Assembly: GCA_964392785.1 (NCBI GenBank)
Contig: CAYMRH010000005.1
Location: 4,778 to 68,777, forward strand
Direction of reading: 5' to 3'
Length of the DNA stretch: 64,000 bases
From: an uncultured Brevinematales bacterium
Lineage (GTDB): Bacteria > Spirochaetota > Brevinematia > Brevinematales > JAOACQ01
Made by a program: the position numbers and the translations under genes. Below the pieces are notes generated by a model. It was not told the origin of the DNA, did not search any database, and saw nothing but the letters and a program-made list of their open reading frames with translations. Positions 19,077 through 64,000 of this stretch are shown in pieces (the first letter of the stretch is position 1; the number at the start of each line of letters is the position of its first letter).

Positions 19077-21731
19077 TTATTCCTCGAAGCGTTCGATCAC
19101 CAGTTCCACGTAGGCGCGGGACAGTTTCAGGCTCTTGGAAATGTCCTCCACCGTCCAACCCTGTTCCTTCAGGCGCAGGATGTTCTTGGCGGTGTCTTCG
19201 TCGTTCGCTCGTTCCGCGGCGGCCGTCCGTTTGGGGCCCAGTTGCCCCTCCTGGGTTTCGCGCACGCGCTCGAGCTGGGTTTCCAGCTTGGCCACCCATT
19301 CGCGCATCTTCTGGACTTTCTTGGATTCCTCGTCAATGTGGATGAGCAGGTTCTCGATGTCCGCGATCTTGTCCACCGCCACGCCGATGCGGTCCTGGTC
19401 GCTGAACAGCCGGGAAATGTTGGACTGGGCCGTCTTGACGTCCTCTTCCACCTTGCGGGAGATCTTGTTCATGGTGGTGACCTTCTCCTCGATCAGGGCC
19501 ACCTTTTCGTCCATGACCTTGATGTCGTCGCGGGAGGAGTCCACGGAGTTGATCAGGCTGTTGATGATGTCCCGCTTCTTTTCCGCGTCCGCGATCCTTT
19601 CCTTGATCTCTTCGTAGATCTTGAGCGTTTCCAGCAGCACGGCCTTCACGTCCTCCACCTTGCCGGACTGCTTGTCGATGATGGACAGGATTTCCTGGGC
19701 GTCCTTGACCTTGTCCAGGGCGGCTTTGGCGGTTTCGTGTATGGCCAGCGTTTCCTTGCGGGAGGCGGCGATATTCAGCAGGAGCCCGTCCAGCGCCTTG
19801 TGCTCGGTTTTGACGGTGTCCAGGCTCTTCATGGCTTTTTCGATGTCTTTTTTCCGGTCTTCCAGTTCCTTCAAAAACTGCGTGATCATCTTCACGTTCT
19901 TGCCGGACTTTTCCGTGAGCGTTTCGGCCTTGTCCAGGATGGCGCTTTTTTTGACCAGGCCGTCGTATCGGGTCTCGATTTCCTTGGTGCGTTTGTTCAG
20001 GTCCTTCAGGTCGGACAGCACCTGCTCCTTGAGCTCCTTTTTCTCCGCCGCCACGTCGCGCTGGATGGCCTGCAGGTCCGCTTTGGCGTTGTCCAGAGTG
20101 TTTTCCAGTTCTTCCTCCGTCTTTTTGACGTAGCCGTCAAAATTGTTGGTGATTTCGTTCACGCGCTTGGTGAATTCCGTGTCCAGGGAAGCCGCCCGGT
20201 CCTGGATGGACGCCGCGGCCTCTTCTTCGATCTGCTTGAACTGGCGCGTCAGTTCCCGGATCTTTGCGGCCACGCTTTCGTATTCCGCGGCCGACGCGGC
20301 CACGTATTTTTCAAATTCCTTGCTGAATTTTTCCTGGAATTCCGAGAGCTCCTCGTTCAGGCGCTCCTCGCTTTCCGAAGCGGCCCGCGCGGCGATTTTC
20401 CGGAATTCCTCCTCCAGGTCCTCCAGCCGGCCGGTGTGGGTCTTGTAGAATTTCTCCAGTTCCTTCTCCCGGGCCGCCATGGCGCTTTCCAGCTCCTTTT
20501 CCCGGGCGGCGGCCGCGGAGGCCAGGGATTTTTCCCCGGCGGCAATGGAGGCGGAAAGCGATTTCTCCTGGGACGCGATGGCGTTCTCCAGTTCCTTCAT
20601 GCGGCGGGTTTCGTCCGTCAGGTCTTTTTTCAGGTCGGACAGGCCCGTTTTGAGTTCGTCGATCTCCCCGAGGGCGCTTTCCTTCACTTTTTCCACGGTG
20701 GCGCGGATGGTGTTCCTGAGGTTTTCTATTCCGTATTCTTCCTTTTCCATGAGTTCCTTGGTGGTCTGGTCGAACTTTTTGCCGATGATGTCGCGGATGT
20801 TGTCCATTTTTTCCTGCGCGTCGTCCAGGCTGTCTTCCAGGGCTTTTTCCTTGTCCTGGATCTTGCGGACCACGGCGTCCAGCGACTCGCGGCCCACGGT
20901 CTTGATGTCGTCCACGGCCTGGGAGAGGTCTCCCTGCAGCTTCTGGATCATGGTCTGGAGGGATTCTTCTTTTTTGGCCACGGAAGCGACGAATTTCTCC
21001 GCTTCGTTTCCGGCGCCGGCCTTGACGGACGCCAGTTCGGACTTGAACTTGTCGGTCACGTCCTTGATGAATTTCCCGAGCCGGGCGTTCATGTCCTGGA
21101 GCGCGCCGGAATGGGCCGTGATCTTGTTCTGGAGCGAGTCCACGGCCGCCTGCTTTTTGGAGATGTCCTCCTGCAGGGCGCGGATCTGGTCGGCGGACTC
21201 GCTTTTCTGGAGCGCGATGTCGTCCAGGGTCTTTTTCATGGCGTCGTGGATGTTGTCCTCGGCCCAGACCTTGGACTGGTCAATGTCCGACTGGATCTGC
21301 CTGGCGTCCTTCTGGGCGTCCGCGATCTCCTTTTTCAGGGCGTCCACTTCCGTGGCGGCTTTGGAGATTTCCAGGAGCTTGGTCCGGACCTCCGCCATGT
21401 TGCGGTTGAAGTCCGCCGCTTCCCGGAGCTCGCCCGTCAGGGCCTGGCGGATGGCCGTGATCTGCTTGATGCTCCCGCCGATCTCCCCCATTTTGTTGTT
21501 GATGAAGGCGCTGGCCTTGTCCAGTTTTTTGAGGGCGATGTCCAGGGAAATGGTCTTGTCGCGCAGTTCCTTTTCTTTTTCCTGGAACAGGCGGTTCAGG
21601 TTCGAGACGGACGTGTTGATGAAATTCTTCAGCGTCTGCAGCTGGGTGTTGCGCTTGTCGCGCCGGCGGAAGAAGAGGATCAGGAAAACGGATATGAGGA
21701 TGGGCAGGACGATGCTGACAAAATTGACCAT
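19077..21731 (-). CDS. Membrane-anchored long coiled-coil protein (SpiroCoCo-like) with C-terminal HTH-like tail
   Basis: N-terminal TM helix, ~800 aa heptad-rich E/K/L/Q region, tail LKEQGWTVEDISKSLKLSRAYVELV. Confidence 0.75.
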   Translation of the reverse strand: MVNFVSIVLPILISVFLILFFRRRDKRNTQLQTLKNFINTSVSNLNRLFQEKEKELRDKTISLDIALKKLDKASAFINNKMGEIGGSIKQITAIRQALTGELREAADFNRNMAEVRTKLLEISKAATEVDALKKEIADAQKDARQIQSDIDQSKVWAEDNIHDAMKKTLDDIALQKSESADQIRALQEDISKKQAAVDSLQNKITAHSGALQDMNARLGKFIKDVTDKFKSELASVKAGAGNEAEKFVASVAKKEESLQTMIQKLQGDLSQAVDDIKTVGRESLDAVVRKIQDKEKALEDSLDDAQEKMDNIRDIIGKKFDQTTKELMEKEEYGIENLRNTIRATVEKVKESALGEIDELKTGLSDLKKDLTDETRRMKELENAIASQEKSLSASIAAGEKSLASAAAAREKELESAMAAREKELEKFYKTHTGRLEDLEEEFRKIAARAASESEERLNEELSEFQEKFSKEFEKYVAASAAEYESVAAKIRELTRQFKQIEEEAAASIQDRAASLDTEFTKRVNEITNNFDGYVKKTEEELENTLDNAKADLQAIQRDVAAEKKELKEQVLSDLKDLNKRTKEIETRYDGLVKKSAILDKAETLTEKSGKNVKMITQFLKELEDRKKDIEKAMKSLDTVKTEHKALDGLLLNIAASRKETLAIHETAKAALDKVKDAQEILSIIDKQSGKVEDVKAVLLETLKIYEEIKERIADAEKKRDIINSLINSVDSSRDDIKVMDEKVALIEEKVTTMNKISRKVEEDVKTAQSNISRLFSDQDRIGVAVDKIADIENLLIHIDEESKKVQKMREWVAKLETQLERVRETQEGQLGPKRTAAAERANDEDTAKNILRLKEQGWTVEDISKSLKLSRAYVELVIERFEE

Positions 21732-21822
21732 GACCCCCTCCGGTTATGACAACGACATTTTAAGGAAAAGGAAGCGGGAAAGCAATAGAAAACGGGGGAA
21801 AATGGGGATTTTCAGGAGGAAG

Positions 21823-21988
21823 CCGCGGAGGCGCGGAGAACGCCAGGGGCCGTCATGCCGCGGCGCTTCGCGGCATACTGAATTTTCCCGGTGTTTCTTC
21901 GTGGCTTTGTGGCGGCGCCTGCTCCGAGCGCCTCGACGGTTCGGCCATGCTCAACGCAGGCTCTGCTCGGGACAGGCTCTGTCGAGGG
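21823..21988. repeat. Cluster of palindromic mini-repeats (left flank of AT-rich gene)
   Basis: CGCGGAG-periodic unit; GTCATGCCGCG..CGCGGCAT hairpin (21852-21876); CCTCGAC (21931)...GTCGAGG (21981) enclosing TTCGGC.GCTCA..CTCGGG. Confidence 0.7.
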
Positions 21989-22017
21989 TTATCAGGTGTT
22001 TGCCATAACTGTGCACA

Positions 22018-22965
22018 TCATTCCCTTATCTTTCTAAGTCTGAAAAGTGCATACAGCTTTTTGAAATTTGGTTTATCATAATCTCCTTTTATGACAACCC
22101 AACGAAAATATATATCGCCCTCCGGTTTTACGATGAAGCTTCTGATTTTAAAACCAGTAATGTATGGCGCAATATTTGCAATAGCAGGAATATCATTTAT
22201 GGTAATCAATCTGTATTCATCGTTCTTATAAACATTATGCTCGGCGTCCTCTTGGAAATCCGAAAGATATTTATTCTTAAATTTTAAAACAATATCCTTG
22301 GTCTTCTCATCTTCAATAGAATATTCTTTATAATTAGTATTAACCAAATTATATATATATGTAACATTTCCATCACCGAATAAAATTTCAGACTTATTTT
22401 TATCAAAATTGAAGTAACCATAGGTTGAAAACCAGCCCTTATTAAAGATTTGAAAGTTTGTGTTTTTTGTAAATTTGACAAGATTTCCCAGCGGAATCCA
22501 AGCGTTGCCTTCATCGTCAACATCAAAACTATATGGGTAGTGAAATATTCCACTATTTTCACTATATAAAAAATTGCTGGTCTTAACCATAGGCTCCAGA
22601 ACATACTCATATCCATTCGGCAATCTGCCAATATAAAGCCTTTCGCCCACATTAAAACTGTCTACAAAATTATATATATTGTTATAATAGACATCCCTTG
22701 TTTTCCAGGTACGACCCGAGCCCACCCCTTTCTCCCATTGTTCGTTATAAATCCTGAATTCCCTTTTCCCTTCGAACTTCTGAACCTCGCTGCTTTTTAC
22801 ACTTGTTAATATCTTTTTATCTCCAAGCGCTTTATAAACCTTGATCGCCTCATCCGTCGTCAGCTCTTCCTTGGGCAACTTTAATAGCACGGACAAATCG
22901 CGCTCTTCAGCGCTCCAGGCGTTGACGCAAATCAGCAGGAGTAAAATGGCGGTCATTCTGGTCAT
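22018..22965 (-). CDS. Secreted hypothetical protein, AT-rich
   Basis: Signal peptide MTRMTAILLLLICVNAWSA; body about 30% GC by spot counts. Confidence 0.75.
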   Translation of the reverse strand: MTRMTAILLLLICVNAWSAEERDLSVLLKLPKEELTTDEAIKVYKALGDKKILTSVKSSEVQKFEGKREFRIYNEQWEKGVGSGRTWKTRDVYYNNIYNFVDSFNVGERLYIGRLPNGYEYVLEPMVKTSNFLYSENSGIFHYPYSFDVDDEGNAWIPLGNLVKFTKNTNFQIFNKGWFSTYGYFNFDKNKSEILFGDGNVTYIYNLVNTNYKEYSIEDEKTKDIVLKFKNKYLSDFQEDAEHNVYKNDEYRLITINDIPAIANIAPYITGFKIRSFIVKPEGDIYFRWVVIKGDYDKPNFKKLYALFRLRKIRE

Positions 22966-23010
22966 AACATGCCCCCTTTTTGGCAGTAGATTGGGTTTTA
23001 TGTGCTTTTG

Positions 23011-23287
23011 CCCGGCCCTTCGATACACGGCCCGGTGGCTGAGTGCCCAGCTCCTGCGTGCAGGGGCTGGGTGTATCGAAGCCCGGGCCGCACACAGCCA
23101 CCGGGATTTTGCAGCGGCCTCGACTTCGGCCCCTCGGTAGTGCTGCTGGACGAGGAAGCCGTAAACCCGTTCGGCTGAGCTCAGGGCATCGCTCGGGGAC
23201 CGAAGTCTCGGCCGAACCGGTCGTCGAGTTCACCGCTCCCTGCTTTGCCGGACTACCGAGACGCCGGTGAGGCCGAAGTTGAGGCCG
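23011..23287. repeat. Cluster of nested and interleaved REP-like palindromes
   Basis: CTTCGATACAC/GTGTATCGAAG (23018/23071), CCCGGTGGCTG/CAGCCACCGGG (23031/23095), and triple-nested inverted repeat 23115-23287. Confidence 0.85.
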
Positions 23288-23530
23288 TCATTCACTTCTT
23301 CAAATAATATATCCTTTTCTTCTTCGCTTTCAATTTCAATTCTGCTTCATTCTCCTCTATCAGGGCTTTCTTCTTATCGTGACTCCAACCCTGAACCTGC
23401 TTCTCTCTTTTAAAAGCTGTCTTTATTGATTGATAATATTCCCAATAAACCAATTTTACCGGTCTTCGTTTCGCAGTATATCGGGCACCTCTGTCTTCAG
23501 AAGTTTCAACCCCTTTTCTAAAAACCAGCG

Positions 23531-23577
23531 CGGTCCCTGAGTGATTTTCCGCGTCAGCGGAAAATTGTATCGAAGGG
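23531..23577 (-). repeat. REP-like element inserted in frame in the GIY-YIG gene
   Basis: Minus strand CCCTTCGATACA-ATTTTCCGC-tgac-GCGGAAAAT-CACTCAGGGACCG. Confidence 0.85.
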
Positions 23578-23621
23578 CCGCCATTATGCTCCTCGAGACG
23601 TCTTTCCAAATCCCTGTCGGT

Positions 23622-23641
23622 CCCTGAGCGGAGTCGAAGGG
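23622..23641 (-). repeat. 20 nt REP-like element causing the GIY-YIG frameshift
   Basis: Minus strand CCCTTCGACTCCGCTCAGGG directly after codons YTG. Confidence 0.85.
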
Positions 23642-23760
23642 GCCCGTGTAATATGACCCGTCTGAGCATTCCACTATGTACATATACGGCATATCATCCT
23701 CTTACTAATTTTGTGCCGCCTGATCAAGCTTAAGTAGTTGGGAAAACCGCGGCCAAGCCG

Positions 23761-23864
23761 TCGCCCTGACGGTTCGACGAAAGCGGTTGGTGAGCCTGTC
23801 GAACCACACCGCGGCGGCCGTGTCGAAGGGTCGAAGCGGTCGAGGGGCGCTGCGTCTCCGTGGC
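23761..23864. repeat. Nested REP-like cluster upstream of the GIY-YIG gene
   Basis: CCCTGA (23764)...TGTCGAAGGG (23821) enclosing GGTTCGAC/GTCGAACC and GGTGAGCCTGTCGAACC. Confidence 0.8.
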
Positions 23865-23869
23865 AGCCA

Positions 23870-24322
23870 TCAAACCAGCCTGACGATCACCGCCACAAGT
23901 GCGCCCCACGCGCCGCCGGCAACCACTTCCAGGATGGAGTGTCCCTTGAACTGCGGGATGTTTTTGGGAACGGGGATGCGGTTCTTTTTGGCGAGCGCCC
24001 GGGTGAGGGTGATGTTGATCTCCACCGTCTTGCGGAGCTTGATGATGTCGTAGATCAGGATGCCGGCCATGACCACGGCCAGGCCAAAGAGCGAACTGGA
24101 AAAACCCGATTCCAGGCCAATGCCCACCGTCACGCCCGTGATGAAGGCGGTGTGCGCGGACGGGATGTCCCCGTAATCCGCGAACTTCCGGATGTCCGGC
24201 GGCTTGCCCCGGAACACGGGCAGGAAAATCTTGAAAACCTGGGACGACACCTGCGCGATGATCGCCGCCAAAAAGGGTTTGTTCAGGAGAACTTTGAATA
24301 CGTTGAAATCCGTGCCGTTCAT
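23870..24322 (-). CDS. Divergent PAP2 family (DUF212) membrane protein
   Basis: G.IPSAHTA, ILIYD...LR, GH...EVVAG. Confidence 0.85.
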   Translation of the reverse strand: MNGTDFNVFKVLLNKPFLAAIIAQVSSQVFKIFLPVFRGKPPDIRKFADYGDIPSAHTAFITGVTVGIGLESGFSSSLFGLAVVMAGILIYDIIKLRKTVEINITLTRALAKKNRIPVPKNIPQFKGHSILEVVAGGAWGALVAVIVRLV

Positions 24323-41503: not shown

Positions 41504-41583
41504 GGGCGCGGCGCGGCGGAATCTGATCAATTGGAAAAGCGAAATCATGAAACGGGCCGCGTTGTTAAGGAAATGAGGTGAAT

Positions 41584-42651
41584 ATGAGAAGAGTGTTTCT
41601 TTCCAGTCTGGCCGCGATGATTTCGATTACATCCTGTATTCACGCGGAAGAACAGGCCAAGGAAAAGTTTGACAAGGAATTGACCCAGTTGTTTGAAAAA
41701 GAAGCGCAAAAAAGGAAAGGCATGGTCTATTTTGGCAAACACGCCAGGTATTCTGAAGACGGCAGATATATCGTATTTCAGGTTGTCAGGAATAATAAGG
41801 AAATATTGTGTCTCTTTGATTATAAGGCAAATCGATTGATTCGATATTTTTCTGGCACATATGATAGGTTAAGGTACCCAATATTTAGCAGGTCTGGAGA
41901 AATATTGTTTAATGCAAGTTATTTAATTGAGCAGGGGCGGCCCGGAAAGGGTATAACGTTTATTAGAACAATTGATATGCAGGCAAGTAATATAAGGACG
42001 ATTATGAAAAAGACAAATACGGCGATTATATCACCAACAATTTATGCAGATGGTAAAAGTGTTATTTCTATTCAGTACAATAACGAGAACCCTGAACGGA
42101 TATTTGAATACGATCTTGTTAATGGTCGTGAAAGAATGGTGTTAGACAAGGAGTTAGGCGAAATCTCGGAACTTGTTGCGTTGAATGACAATAGAACCAT
42201 CCTGTTTACAGCCGGCGGGAGCCGGGCGTTTGGGGGAGGGGAGTTGTACTCTTATAGCCTGAATACTGGCCAATTGAAAAAAATCCGAGAATTTGCCAAG
42301 TTGGTATATTCGAATAAATATTCAAACGAAATACTGATATACGATTATGATCAGGAATCAAACGCGGGATTATATCGGTTAAATATTCAAAATGGGCGCA
42401 GCAAGAAGGTGTGTAATATTACAAATCGCGGCAATTGGTTTTATGATTTCAGTCTTTCCCCGGACGGGAAAAAGGTGATGTATATCAGCGCCATCAGCAT
42501 CAGCATGGCCAGCAAGACAAATCTGATCATGGAAATGAATCTGGACGGCAGCGGTCTCCGCTCGCTGCCCGTCGATCTGGGAAAACTGGATCAAGTCCCG
42601 GTCGTCAATATCGATCAGGGCCTGGATATCGACAAGTATATCAAGCAGTAA
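41584..42651 (+). CDS. Exported TolB-like beta-propeller protein, AT-rich core
   Basis: Signal peptide; YSEDGRYIVF, P.FSRSG, LSPDGKKVMY repeats. Confidence 0.72.
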   Translation: MRRVFLSSLAAMISITSCIHAEEQAKEKFDKELTQLFEKEAQKRKGMVYFGKHARYSEDGRYIVFQVVRNNKEILCLFDYKANRLIRYFSGTYDRLRYPIFSRSGEILFNASYLIEQGRPGKGITFIRTIDMQASNIRTIMKKTNTAIISPTIYADGKSVISIQYNNENPERIFEYDLVNGRERMVLDKELGEISELVALNDNRTILFTAGGSRAFGGGELYSYSLNTGQLKKIREFAKLVYSNKYSNEILIYDYDQESNAGLYRLNIQNGRSKKVCNITNRGNWFYDFSLSPDGKKVMYISAISISMASKTNLIMEMNLDGSGLRSLPVDLGKLDQVPVVNIDQGLDIDKYIKQ

Positions 42652-60684: not shown

Positions 60685-60747
60685 AGAGTCGCAGAGGGCC
60701 CTCGGCCCGGCTCAGGCTCACTCTCGGGGCAGGCGCCGAGAACGCGG
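60685..60747. repeat. REP-like unit nested in a CGCAGAG-periodic repeat
   Basis: AGAGTCGCAGAG-[GGCCCTCGGCCCGGCTCAGGCTCACTCTCGGGGCAG]-GCGCCGAGAACGCGG. Confidence 0.6.
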
Positions 60748-62794: not shown

Positions 62795-62949
62795 CAATCA
62801 GTCCGTTTTACAAACGGTCCAACATCAGTTTAAAATGATGGCGGTCAACGGTCATAGGACTTGTGTGAAAAAGCCGGGATTTTCATCGCGTTTTCGCTGA
62901 AAGGCAACTCTCGGCATGGCCTGCAGTTAACCGGCCTGTAATTCAGGAC

Positions 62950-64000
62950 TGGTGGACCGGACATTATCGGGACCAGGAATCCAACCTCTATTACGCGAGA
63001 GCACGATACTACAACCCCGAAACCGGACGGTTCATTACCAGCGATCCCATAGCCGACCCGGAGAAGCGGTACTCACCCGCCGGACTCAACAGGTATATTT
63101 ACGGGTTGAACAACCCCACAGTATATTGGGACCCGAATGGGTTGTTCAGCATAGGATTCGGGCTTGTTCTCAGTTGGGACCCGGACCACGGATTTGGGAT
63201 AGGCGTCGGGATAGCGTTCAGTCTTTCCAAAGAATTCGGCGTGGAACTGTACGGCGGATATAATTTCGGCGACCAGTCTTACTCATTTAACGCCGGCGTC
63301 AACGTTAATTTGAATCTGTTTAATTATGTCAGTGTCAAGGTAGGATTGGGTTACGGGTATAATTCCGAGGACGGGCATAAATTCAACGCGTCCCTCGGGG
63401 CCAGCATCGTTAATTTCGGGGCTGAGATTGGAACGGAACAGACATGGTATGCGGACGGGTCGTACCGCGGGGGTTTGTCATACGCCAAGGCGTTCATAGG
63501 AAGCACCCAAATGCATGTGGGAGGTGGTTACCAGATCGGAACCGGGGTGTACTCGGGAGATACCGGATGGTTCATGGAAGGGAAAGTAGGCGGGCTTTCG
63601 GCCAAATTCCAGGAAAACGGGAAAATGACGTTTGGGGCGTTCGGGGTGAACGCTCAGGTTTACCAGGGTCAGTTCGCTCTGACGGGATTCAGGACCGAAG
63701 TGGGATACCGGTACGACTCCGGGAGCGGGCAAGGCGGCCTTTATTCCTCGACATGGAACAGCGTCATGGAGACTTATGAAACCCTGGTTTCCGCTTACAA
63801 ATACCTGACCAGAGATGCCGTGGCGAAGAAAATGACTGAAGAGCGGGTCAGGCCGAAATTGAGGAAGGATTACGAACAGGAAGCGTGGCGTAAAACCCTT
63901 GCGGAAGCGTATTACAGAGACTATATGACGGCCATGTGGCAGAGTCATACCGAACAGGAACGTCAAACTTACATGGCCGACAGGAGATTGCAGAAGGAAT
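62950..64000 (+). CDS. Orphan Rhs repeat-associated core plus C-terminal (toxin) extension; no start codon, runs off the window
   Basis: Frame +1, hand-translated: WTGHYRDQESNLYYARARYYNPETGRFITSDP...NRYIYGLNNPTVYWDPNG; no stop up to 64000; upstream in-frame TGA at 62866 with no ATG, GTG or TTG before the core. Confidence 0.88.

Follow-up and report, generated by a model that had tools for sequence, protein, structure and literature searches.

Between a coiled-coil gene (19077–21731, minus strand) and a DUF212 gene (23870–24322, minus strand) of an uncultured Brevinematales bacterium lies a spacer in which clusters of palindromic DNA alternate with two genes of low GC content, one of them coding for a small GIY-YIG nuclease. 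The window (the whole stretch of 64,000 nucleotides (nt) that was analysed) is a segment of a bacterial chromosome with a GC content of 58%. Read from left to right, the spacer consists of a GC-rich palindrome cluster (cluster 1, approximately 21827–22015), a low-GC ORFan (22018–22965, minus strand), a second GC-rich cluster (approximately 22995–23290), the GIY-YIG gene (23292–23692, minus strand) and a third GC-rich cluster (approximately 23735–23866). A first-pass annotation of this DNA had described the layout as repeat, AT-rich secreted gene, repeat, GIY-YIG gene, repeat, and both the coordinates and the GC content of the two genes (36% for the ORFan and 42% for the GIY-YIG gene, the latter without the inserts described below) bear this out. 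It had missed the conserved stem-loop core of the repeats (TTCGAC..GCTCA), the two copies of this core inside the GIY-YIG open reading frame (ORF), and the fact that the nuclease gene is broken.

The GIY-YIG gene is of the single-domain type represented by UPF0213 and Ssn, and its reading in the window is split across two frames. In an alignment with 15 homologues, which follow the pattern YYTG-STxDLERRL...EH..G..GA.YT, the window gene carries two inserts, both of them hairpin repeats. A 20-nt short-form core (CCCTTCGACTCCGCTCAGGG, 23622–23641, minus strand) is inserted exactly between the codons for YTG and T, where it shifts the frame, and the gene is therefore a pseudogene. The other insert, a 42-nt long-form hairpin (CCTTCGATACAATTTTCCGCTGACGCGGAAAATCACTCAGGG, 23535–23576, minus strand), is in frame and lies in a variable loop after EHNGG, a loop that also differs in length among the homologues. 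The ends of the inserts can be shifted by as many as 3 bases, 20 nt being the reading that preserves the spacing of the family. These hairpin insertions are the only lesions of the gene: upon removal of both (20 + 42 nt) a single ORF of 112 amino acids (aa) is obtained with all invariant residues, and this insert-free reading matches PF01541 with 50.6 bits (cut-off 22.6, E 2.5e-13). The GIY-YIG core residues Y5, Y15, G17, R33, H37 and E98 are invariant in the alignment including the window sequence, and the closest homologues have about 93–113 aa (103 aa in P0001, 100 aa in P0002).

Independent assemblies of three sequencing runs returned an identical sequence, including the 20-nt insert and both junctions of the cassette discussed below. 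The 20-nt insert is not a sequencing error, because the contigs of independent runs agree throughout the inserts. The nuclease copy in the window is dead and cannot be an active enzyme; only a further copy elsewhere in the genome could supply nuclease activity. The full hairpin formed around the 20-nt insert (23617–23646, minus strand) is found by the covariance model of the repeat with 34.3 bits (E 3.4e-7), and the 25-mer 23617–23641 is identical in three loci of the Geobacter group. Both intragenic inserts sit in the middle of CGG..|..ACCG, and the bases of the host gene extend the stem of the hairpin.

The short form of the repeat consists of an invariant loop, TTCGAC-N2-3-GCTCA, and 6–8 flanking nt on either side that pair into a stem, the sequence of which is nearly free (for example GTTCCC/GGGAAC, GGTCAC/GTGACC, GTTGGC/GCCAAC and GCTCGT/ACGAGC). 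Among 174 distinct copies the inner three stem positions are paired in 93–96%, with several pair types at each, and the covariation score from 65 copies is 0.646 vs 0.205 after shuffling, a value reached by none of 500 shuffles (slid controls gave at most 0.17). The outer stem, with the family consensus cGGT...ACCG, pairs more weakly than the inner three pairs. In the long form, a second, covarying helix is found between TTCGATAC and YACTCA; this form is represented in the window by the 42-nt insert and by the copy at 23031–23087, and elsewhere at loci of Alteromonas, Fibrobacterota, Bacteroidota and Spirochaetota. Rfam contained nothing relevant, either for the window at the gathering threshold or for the locus and 12 hairpin-rich loci at E-value thresholds. 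The core of the hammerhead ribozyme (CUGANGA...GAAA), which was compared by eye with the complementary strand, does not fit. A text search of the literature retrieved the hairpin sequences from no paper text, and no paper linking GIY-YIG proteins with repetitive extragenic palindromes (REP). As an observation on the arrangement of the repeat elsewhere, a metagenome-assembled genome (MAG) of Leucothrix mucor (loci L176, L193, L205, L257, L270, L284 and L291) contains a unit of about 90 nt with two inverted hairpins (CCCTTCGACTCCGCTCAGGGAGCTGTACCCTGAGCGGAGTCGAAGGG), a doublet resembling the REP doublets called REPINs, which recurs with conserved flanks in at least 9 copies.

Across bacterial phyla, genes of this GIY-YIG clade have hairpins of this class close by, usually on either side. 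We analysed 80 loci encoding relatives of the GIY-YIG protein from species-representative genomes, including Geobacter, Nostoc and other cyanobacteria, Chloroflexota, Fibrobacter, Bacteroidota, Actinomycetota, Gemmatimonas, Methylobacter, Alteromonas and Spirochaetota, with 54 loci of seryl-tRNA synthetase (SerRS) as the control. A hairpin is located within 500 nt of the gene in 61 of the 80 GIY-YIG loci (76%) and on both sides in 40 (50%), compared to none of the 54 controls, so that the pairing of palindromes with a small GIY-YIG gene proposed in the first-pass annotation holds far beyond the window. The loop motif alone has 189 matches in 388 kb of GIY-YIG loci vs 1 in 1.24 Mb of control DNA, in which the covariance model found no match at all. 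Nor are the repeats evenly spread, with no regard to the nuclease: at the GIY-YIG loci their density falls from 2.7 per kb near the gene to 0.061 per kb farther out. The nearest hairpin is found at a median distance of 54 nt upstream and 61 nt downstream, and just one hairpin in these loci is inside a coding region. Identical hairpin sequences of 20–25 nt adjoin GIY-YIG genes in Geobacter, Nostoc, Gemmatimonas and others. The earlier suggestion that the small nuclease is the cognate enzyme of the palindromes stands in so far as the pairing is real across phyla, but not for the copy in the window, which is frameshifted by a hairpin and is not active.

Approached from the side of the repeat, by searching a genome collection with the pattern CCCTTCGACNNNGCTCAGGGA, the hairpin was found in at least 120 tiles from many phyla, including bacteria of the candidate phyla radiation. 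Among the matches listed, a GIY-YIG gene is present in 4 of 120 tiles. An open frame of at least 600 nt covers 24% of the hairpins vs 78% of random positions. Such a scarcity of genes relative to solo, extragenic repeats is familiar from REP and their associated tyrosine transposases (RAYT). A phage origin was considered and rejected, as tblastn searches of phages and plasmids yielded only distant GIY-YIG matches (at most 44% identity). In IMG/VR, 26 viral or proviral contigs (L306–L331) contain the hairpin, some of them in 2–5 copies, and none has a GIY-YIG gene nearby.

The proximity of gene and repeat also affects gene prediction and assembly. GIY-YIG ORFs often run on through the 3' hairpin (positions 1992–2312 of L293 and many of the loci L093–L172), and some reach 130–226 aa; a GIY-YIG protein of Sphingomonas ends in ...ALRLRSGRTRE, and the repeats thus add recurring junk peptides to predicted proteins. 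In several samples, Logan contigs with the closest GIY-YIG homologues or with the ORFan homologue end within 60–70 nt of the gene (L081, 1–70; L084, 5303–5363; L296, 1–66), as expected of repeats that break assemblies.

Most of the spacer is variable among strains. A block of 1935 nt (21827–23761, as delimited by the joints of contigs), with repeat clusters 1 and 2, the ORFan and the broken GIY-YIG gene, is carried by only some of the strains. X1–X3 and X14 carry the block, with contigs of X1–X3 spanning both junctions, while alleles with an empty site come from four runs of two studies, all of them sludge metagenomes. There are two such alleles. Contigs of X6, X7 and X8 join position 21826 to 23762, and at this joint AAGCCG occurs as a 6-nt direct repeat (21820–21825 and 23755–23760). 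In X10, which belongs to another study, the joint is between 21868 and 23748, and 6 nt (CGCGGC) there fit both sides; this joint gives alternative block limits of 21875–23753. The X10 junction falls in the 3' arm of a degenerate hairpin at 21850–21880 (CCGTCATGCCGCGGCGCTTCGCGGCATACTG, plus strand) of the CGTCAT type, which resembles the NTS/SRM repeats introduced below and, when checked by hand, fails the published SRM pattern only in the 3' tail. The joints fit a nested series, where a small hairpin unit was inserted first and the cassette then entered its arm. The empty-site contigs cover 23762–23820 and retain the hairpin at 23783–23811, 21 nt from the joint. The cassette showed no convincing terminal inverted repeats, and a search of reference genomes for the empty site gave no relatives with DUF212 as the query and only Brevinematales without a nearby DUF212 gene with SerRS. 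The locus is indeed cassette-like, as the first-pass annotation had it, and relatives do not all carry the same gene content here (X6–X8 and X10 are without the block). Its proposal that the palindromes act as the integration points of the cassette is only suggested by the data, namely by the retained hairpin 21 nt from the empty site and the 6-nt direct repeats at the junctions.

In the 64-kb window, the covariance model detects significant short hairpins only at 23617–23646 (the hairpin inside the gene) and at 23783–23811, both on the minus strand. The latter is a well-formed copy (CGGTGTGG-TTCGACAGGCTCA-CCAACCGC, 26.5 bits, E 5.4e-5) in cluster 3, where it is followed by three tandem left half-sites, read directly in the sequence (CCCCTCGAC-CG-CTTCGAC-CC-TTCGACAC, 23820–23847, minus strand); similar stacked half-sites occur in other genomes (L275, L213). 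With the two long forms, the well-formed hairpins in the window number four, all on the strand of the GIY-YIG gene. The long form in cluster 2 (CCCGGGC-TTCGATAC-[12-bp extra stem-loop]-CACTCA-GCCACCGGG, 23031–23087, minus strand) shows the inner helix upon folding. It is the element that interrupts another long-form hairpin, of which CGGCCCTTCGATACAC (23013–23028, plus strand) is the 5' half; the first 15 nt of this half are identical to the 5' end of the 42-nt insert.

Cluster 2 also contains a long imperfect palindrome of about 144 nt (23127–23270; inverted repeats I5, I7, I8 and I13; fold z-scores -4.6 and -5.6). Immediately 3' of the closest relative of the GIY-YIG gene (P0001, locus L081) there is a homologue of the palindrome, in which 31 of 33 and 37 of 42 nt are identical. 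Nested in the window copy is a degenerate short hairpin (23162–23191, plus strand; 12 bits, E 0.7 with the covariance model), and the homologue in L081 is without it. The palindrome is repeated elsewhere in the genome, as seen from contigs of five runs that end loosely at 23127 and from a 6631-nt contig of X6 that carries a paralogue. A 19-mer from it gave chance matches only, in coding regions of genomes and metagenome contigs.

The sub-motif TCGGC-NNN-GCTCA-N8-12-CTCGGG, which the first-pass annotation had placed at about 21940, 23170 and 60701, has exact matches at 21941, 23171 and 60702 and none in 100 shuffled sequences. All three sites are degenerate derivatives of the hairpin with the loop variant TTCGGC. 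One is a repeat with the loop TTCGGC-CAT-GCTCA and a poor stem (21941–21971, plus strand), which is not among the matches of the covariance model up to E 10; another belongs to the nested copy at 23162–23191; the third is a solo degenerate copy of this local variant (60702–60728, plus strand), 37 kb away and downstream of the polA start region. In several runs there are contigs that agree over 23127–23275 or 23791–23828 and diverge beyond, and the 38-mer 23791–23828 has about 2.4x the depth of its neighbourhood in X8; composite repeats therefore exist elsewhere in this genome. Loose contig ends also reveal, elsewhere in the genome, composite units built as CCGTCATGC-[copy of 23791–23828]-CATGACGG. 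A second repeat class, of the Ssn type, may coexist with the first in the genome.

The ORFan of the block encodes 315 aa with an N-terminus resembling a signal peptide, and no Pfam family matched the protein. Among 5.8 billion proteins it has only two, distant homologues, P0122 (47%, with a YARHG domain) and P0123 (37%), and the GIY-YIG gene is absent from the contexts of both. Exact-protein look-ups of the window proteins returned no match on record. DNA of the window is found in sludge and bioreactor metagenomes, and the closest reference genomes, identified with SerRS as the query, are Brevinematales (Spirochaetota) MAGs with 64–68% SerRS identity. At six Brevinematales loci (L001–L006) the synteny of the SerRS and coiled-coil genes is kept and DUF212 is not nearby. 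The long coiled-coil gene next to serS (DUF6115 with a C-terminus resembling a helix-turn-helix) is a conserved feature of Brevinematales, and upstream of it there is often a second paralogue. Two features of the window outside the spacer were noted. A PD40-repeat gene (41578–42651, plus strand) looks foreign, with a third-position GC of 0.47 vs about 0.75–0.8 in its neighbours, and the region at about 62900–64000 (plus strand), which reads ...ARYYNPETGRFITSDPI..., looks by eye like the terminal part of an RHS/YD-repeat core to which a variable C-terminal domain is joined, as in polymorphic toxins.

The closest known parallel is the Ssn system (Chenal et al., Nat Commun 2025, PMC11893778), in which single-domain GIY-YIG nucleases of about 94 aa (cd10448) cleave single-stranded DNA beside hairpin repeats known as NTS and SRM, and of which 71% of the loci have a repeat, 42% on both sides, in a repeat-gene-repeat layout like that of an insertion sequence (IS). 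Its authors themselves liken the system to RAYT/REP, raise mobility of the repeats only as a hypothesis and propose nuclease/site pairs as tools for single-stranded DNA (PMC11893778). The earlier comparison of our locus with RAYT/REP systems, with a GIY-YIG fold in place of the transposase, is thus largely right, but it is not new. The likeness to Ssn extends to the protein (about 95–110 aa, 112 aa in the window reconstruction), to the 20–50-nt hairpin repeats flanking the gene (76%, and 50% on both sides, vs the published 71% and 42%), to the possible hundreds of solo, mostly extragenic copies, and to the IS-like layout; the window gene has hairpins on either side (23031–23087 and 23783–23811) and two inside the ORF. 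Homology to an SRM-flanked Ssn-type protein is indicated by hhalign (probability 98.9%, 37% identity).

There are nevertheless clear differences. In NTS the flanks and the stem are conserved and matter and the loop can be removed (PMC11893778), while in the present hairpins it is the loop that is invariant and the stem that is free. The SRM pattern (HGTCWY N0-2 YYVSBRH N0-5 WNVSBRG N0-2 RNCYNB) has no match within about 600 nt of the 80 genes and none at this locus, occurs at background rates elsewhere, and has a sole, unrelated match in the window (14625); as a positive control, it found four SRMs flanking a Shinella plasmid gene of the Ssn type. On a Sphingomonas plasmid, a gene of the window's type has TTCGACTTCGCTCA hairpins on its flanks, while the Ssn-type plasmid gene of Shinella has SRMs there. 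The family profile scores the UPF0213 proteins BH0048 (79.9 bits) and EF2693 (67.7 bits) above the Ssn-type Shinella protein (64.8 bits). Moreover, the window copy is a pseudogene, and nuclease activity of its clade is predicted only. Both the nuclease clade and the hairpin class to which this decayed locus belongs depart from Ssn/SRM as defined in the publication. The authors of the Ssn study may have seen this hairpin class without describing it in the text.

With REP, their BIME arrangements and the RAYT genes (REPtrons), and with CGTC-tagged REPs (PMC2817692, PMC3733652), our system shares short extragenic palindromes, a cognate gene flanked by its own repeats, REPIN-like doublets (Leucothrix) and regularly spaced arrays. 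It differs in that the enzyme is a GIY-YIG nuclease and not an HUH/Y1 transposase, and in that the repeats have neither a terminal GTAG nor a CGTC tag, their conservation residing in the loop. The closest solved relatives of the protein are of the UPF0213 family (B. subtilis YazA, E. coli YhbQ; PDB 1ZG2, E 1.4e-20, and 1YWL, E 5.5e-17), with the motifs CxDGSxYTGxT..RR..H and GAKYT in common. In contrast to the window gene, which lies in a strain-variable low-GC block amid repeats, B. subtilis yazA and its Listeria orthologue are part of a conserved trmNF-yazA-rsmI operon without hairpins, and a YhbQ-like gene of Cupriavidus is likewise without them. Rickettsia palindromic elements (RPE) and, reportedly (Elhai 2008), the small dispersed repeats of cyanobacteria are very small palindromic units that enter other sequences, also protein genes in frame. 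The in-frame insertion into a protein gene (here the 42-nt insert) and the nesting of units are reminiscent of these. The sequences are probably different, however, and RPEs carry a CGTC tag (PMC3733652).

Of several possible explanations, we favour as probable a selfish or domesticated module that is made up of a single-domain GIY-YIG nuclease and its cognate DNA hairpins and survives here as a decaying copy, within a strain-variable insertion in the spacer between the coiled-coil and DUF212 genes. The hairpin units move, as there are two intragenic inserts, and one copy is nested in a long palindrome whose homologue lacks it. By analogy with Ssn and NTS, an intact nuclease would bind the hairpin extruded in single-stranded DNA, read its loop and nick in or beside it, and the nick could then seed the copying or insertion of hairpin units and so keep the gene embedded among them. 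The mobile unit would be the inner stem with the loop, landing in short palindromic targets; the position of the inserts in the middle of CGG..ACCG, together with the weak pairing of the outer stem, suggests, without proving, insertion into such targets. A more far-reaching version, which we put forward tentatively and consider rather less likely than not to hold in full, is that the clade, being nearer to UPF0213, constitutes a second, independent family of hairpin-directed nucleases for single-stranded DNA that reads an invariant loop of 13–14 nt, and that the 20-nt core (3-bp stem and loop) is itself mobile and copied into the centre of CGG|CCG targets.

Several points weigh against the module as we describe it. 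The orientation of the hairpins relative to the gene is not fixed (22 inverted vs 18 direct pairs in 40 loci). A raw link between nuclease subclade and hairpin subclass is significant (reached in 0 of 2000 permutations), but it does not establish co-evolution of the two, since the host phylum explains the signal (identity 0.666 for the same class in different phyla vs 0.656 for different classes in the same phylum). Two differing joints with 6-nt microhomology also fit two independent deletions rather than one insertion. Within the 64-kb window the well-formed hairpins are confined to this locus, and their spread through the genome rests on loose contig ends. That this clade cleaves single-stranded DNA and reads the loop is predicted by analogy, and the ORFan has no demonstrable link to the nuclease/hairpin module.

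A different process would be that the GIY-YIG gene is a free-standing selfish gene of the homing type that uses the hairpins only as landing sites, with the hairpins themselves spread by other means such as another transposase or replication slippage. That the gene is nearly always found amid hairpins, that most hairpins have no nuclease gene nearby, that tandem arrays and stacked half-sites look like products of slippage, and that the cassette lies 21 nt from a hairpin which empty-site strains keep would all be accommodated. The combination of few genes and many solo repeats is, however, equally found in RAYT/REP and Ssn/SRM, where the enzyme does act on the repeats (PMC11893778). Moreover, homing endonucleases normally destroy their own site upon insertion, and here intact hairpins are present on both sides; nor does any other candidate enzyme recur in the flanks. 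We therefore regard this process as improbable, although it is the strongest competitor of the module.

Even less likely, in our view, is a role of the hairpins as RNA elements (terminators, stabilisers of mRNA or a fold like the T-loop), in which case their closeness to the nuclease gene would reflect its regulation and not a DNA substrate. Covariation of the stem is as much expected of RNA as of single-stranded DNA, the hairpins lie outside genes, and the loop begins with TTCGA, the sequence of a tRNA T-loop. Yet hairpins of either orientation are found upstream as well as downstream of the gene, copies have entered ORFs and one another, Rfam has no matching family, and the related Ssn enzymes do not bind RNA (PMC11893778). 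A search for RNA runs with the locus found none. The view that the host's ordinary GC-rich palindromes or terminators have accumulated in a recombination hot-spot as these clusters, with the GIY-YIG gene nearby by coincidence, or that the block is an assembly chimera, might be prompted by genes of 36–42% GC in a genome of 58% GC. It is already refuted: three independent runs assemble both junctions identically, the same 20–25-nt hairpins flank GIY-YIG genes in genera as different as Geobacter, Nostoc and Gemmatimonas, and the 1.24 Mb of control DNA contains no match to the covariance model and a single one to the loop motif.

If the module is what we take it to be, the locus offers direct sequence evidence for hairpin movement, in the form of a 20-nt insertion in a conserved ORF motif, nested copies, and filled and empty strains, and in the annotation of this genome it should be entered as a strain-variable island with the nuclease gene as a pseudogene. 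As a side effect, the repeat would extend or pollute many predicted proteins. Should the more far-reaching version also hold, the 20-nt core would be among the smallest known mobile DNA elements, spread through most bacterial phyla. Already with the module as such, small nucleases paired with hairpin sites in single-stranded DNA would gain a second logic of recognition, based on the loop and not on the stem, which bears on their use as tools for single-stranded DNA, and a very common pan-bacterial extragenic repeat would gain a candidate cognate enzyme.

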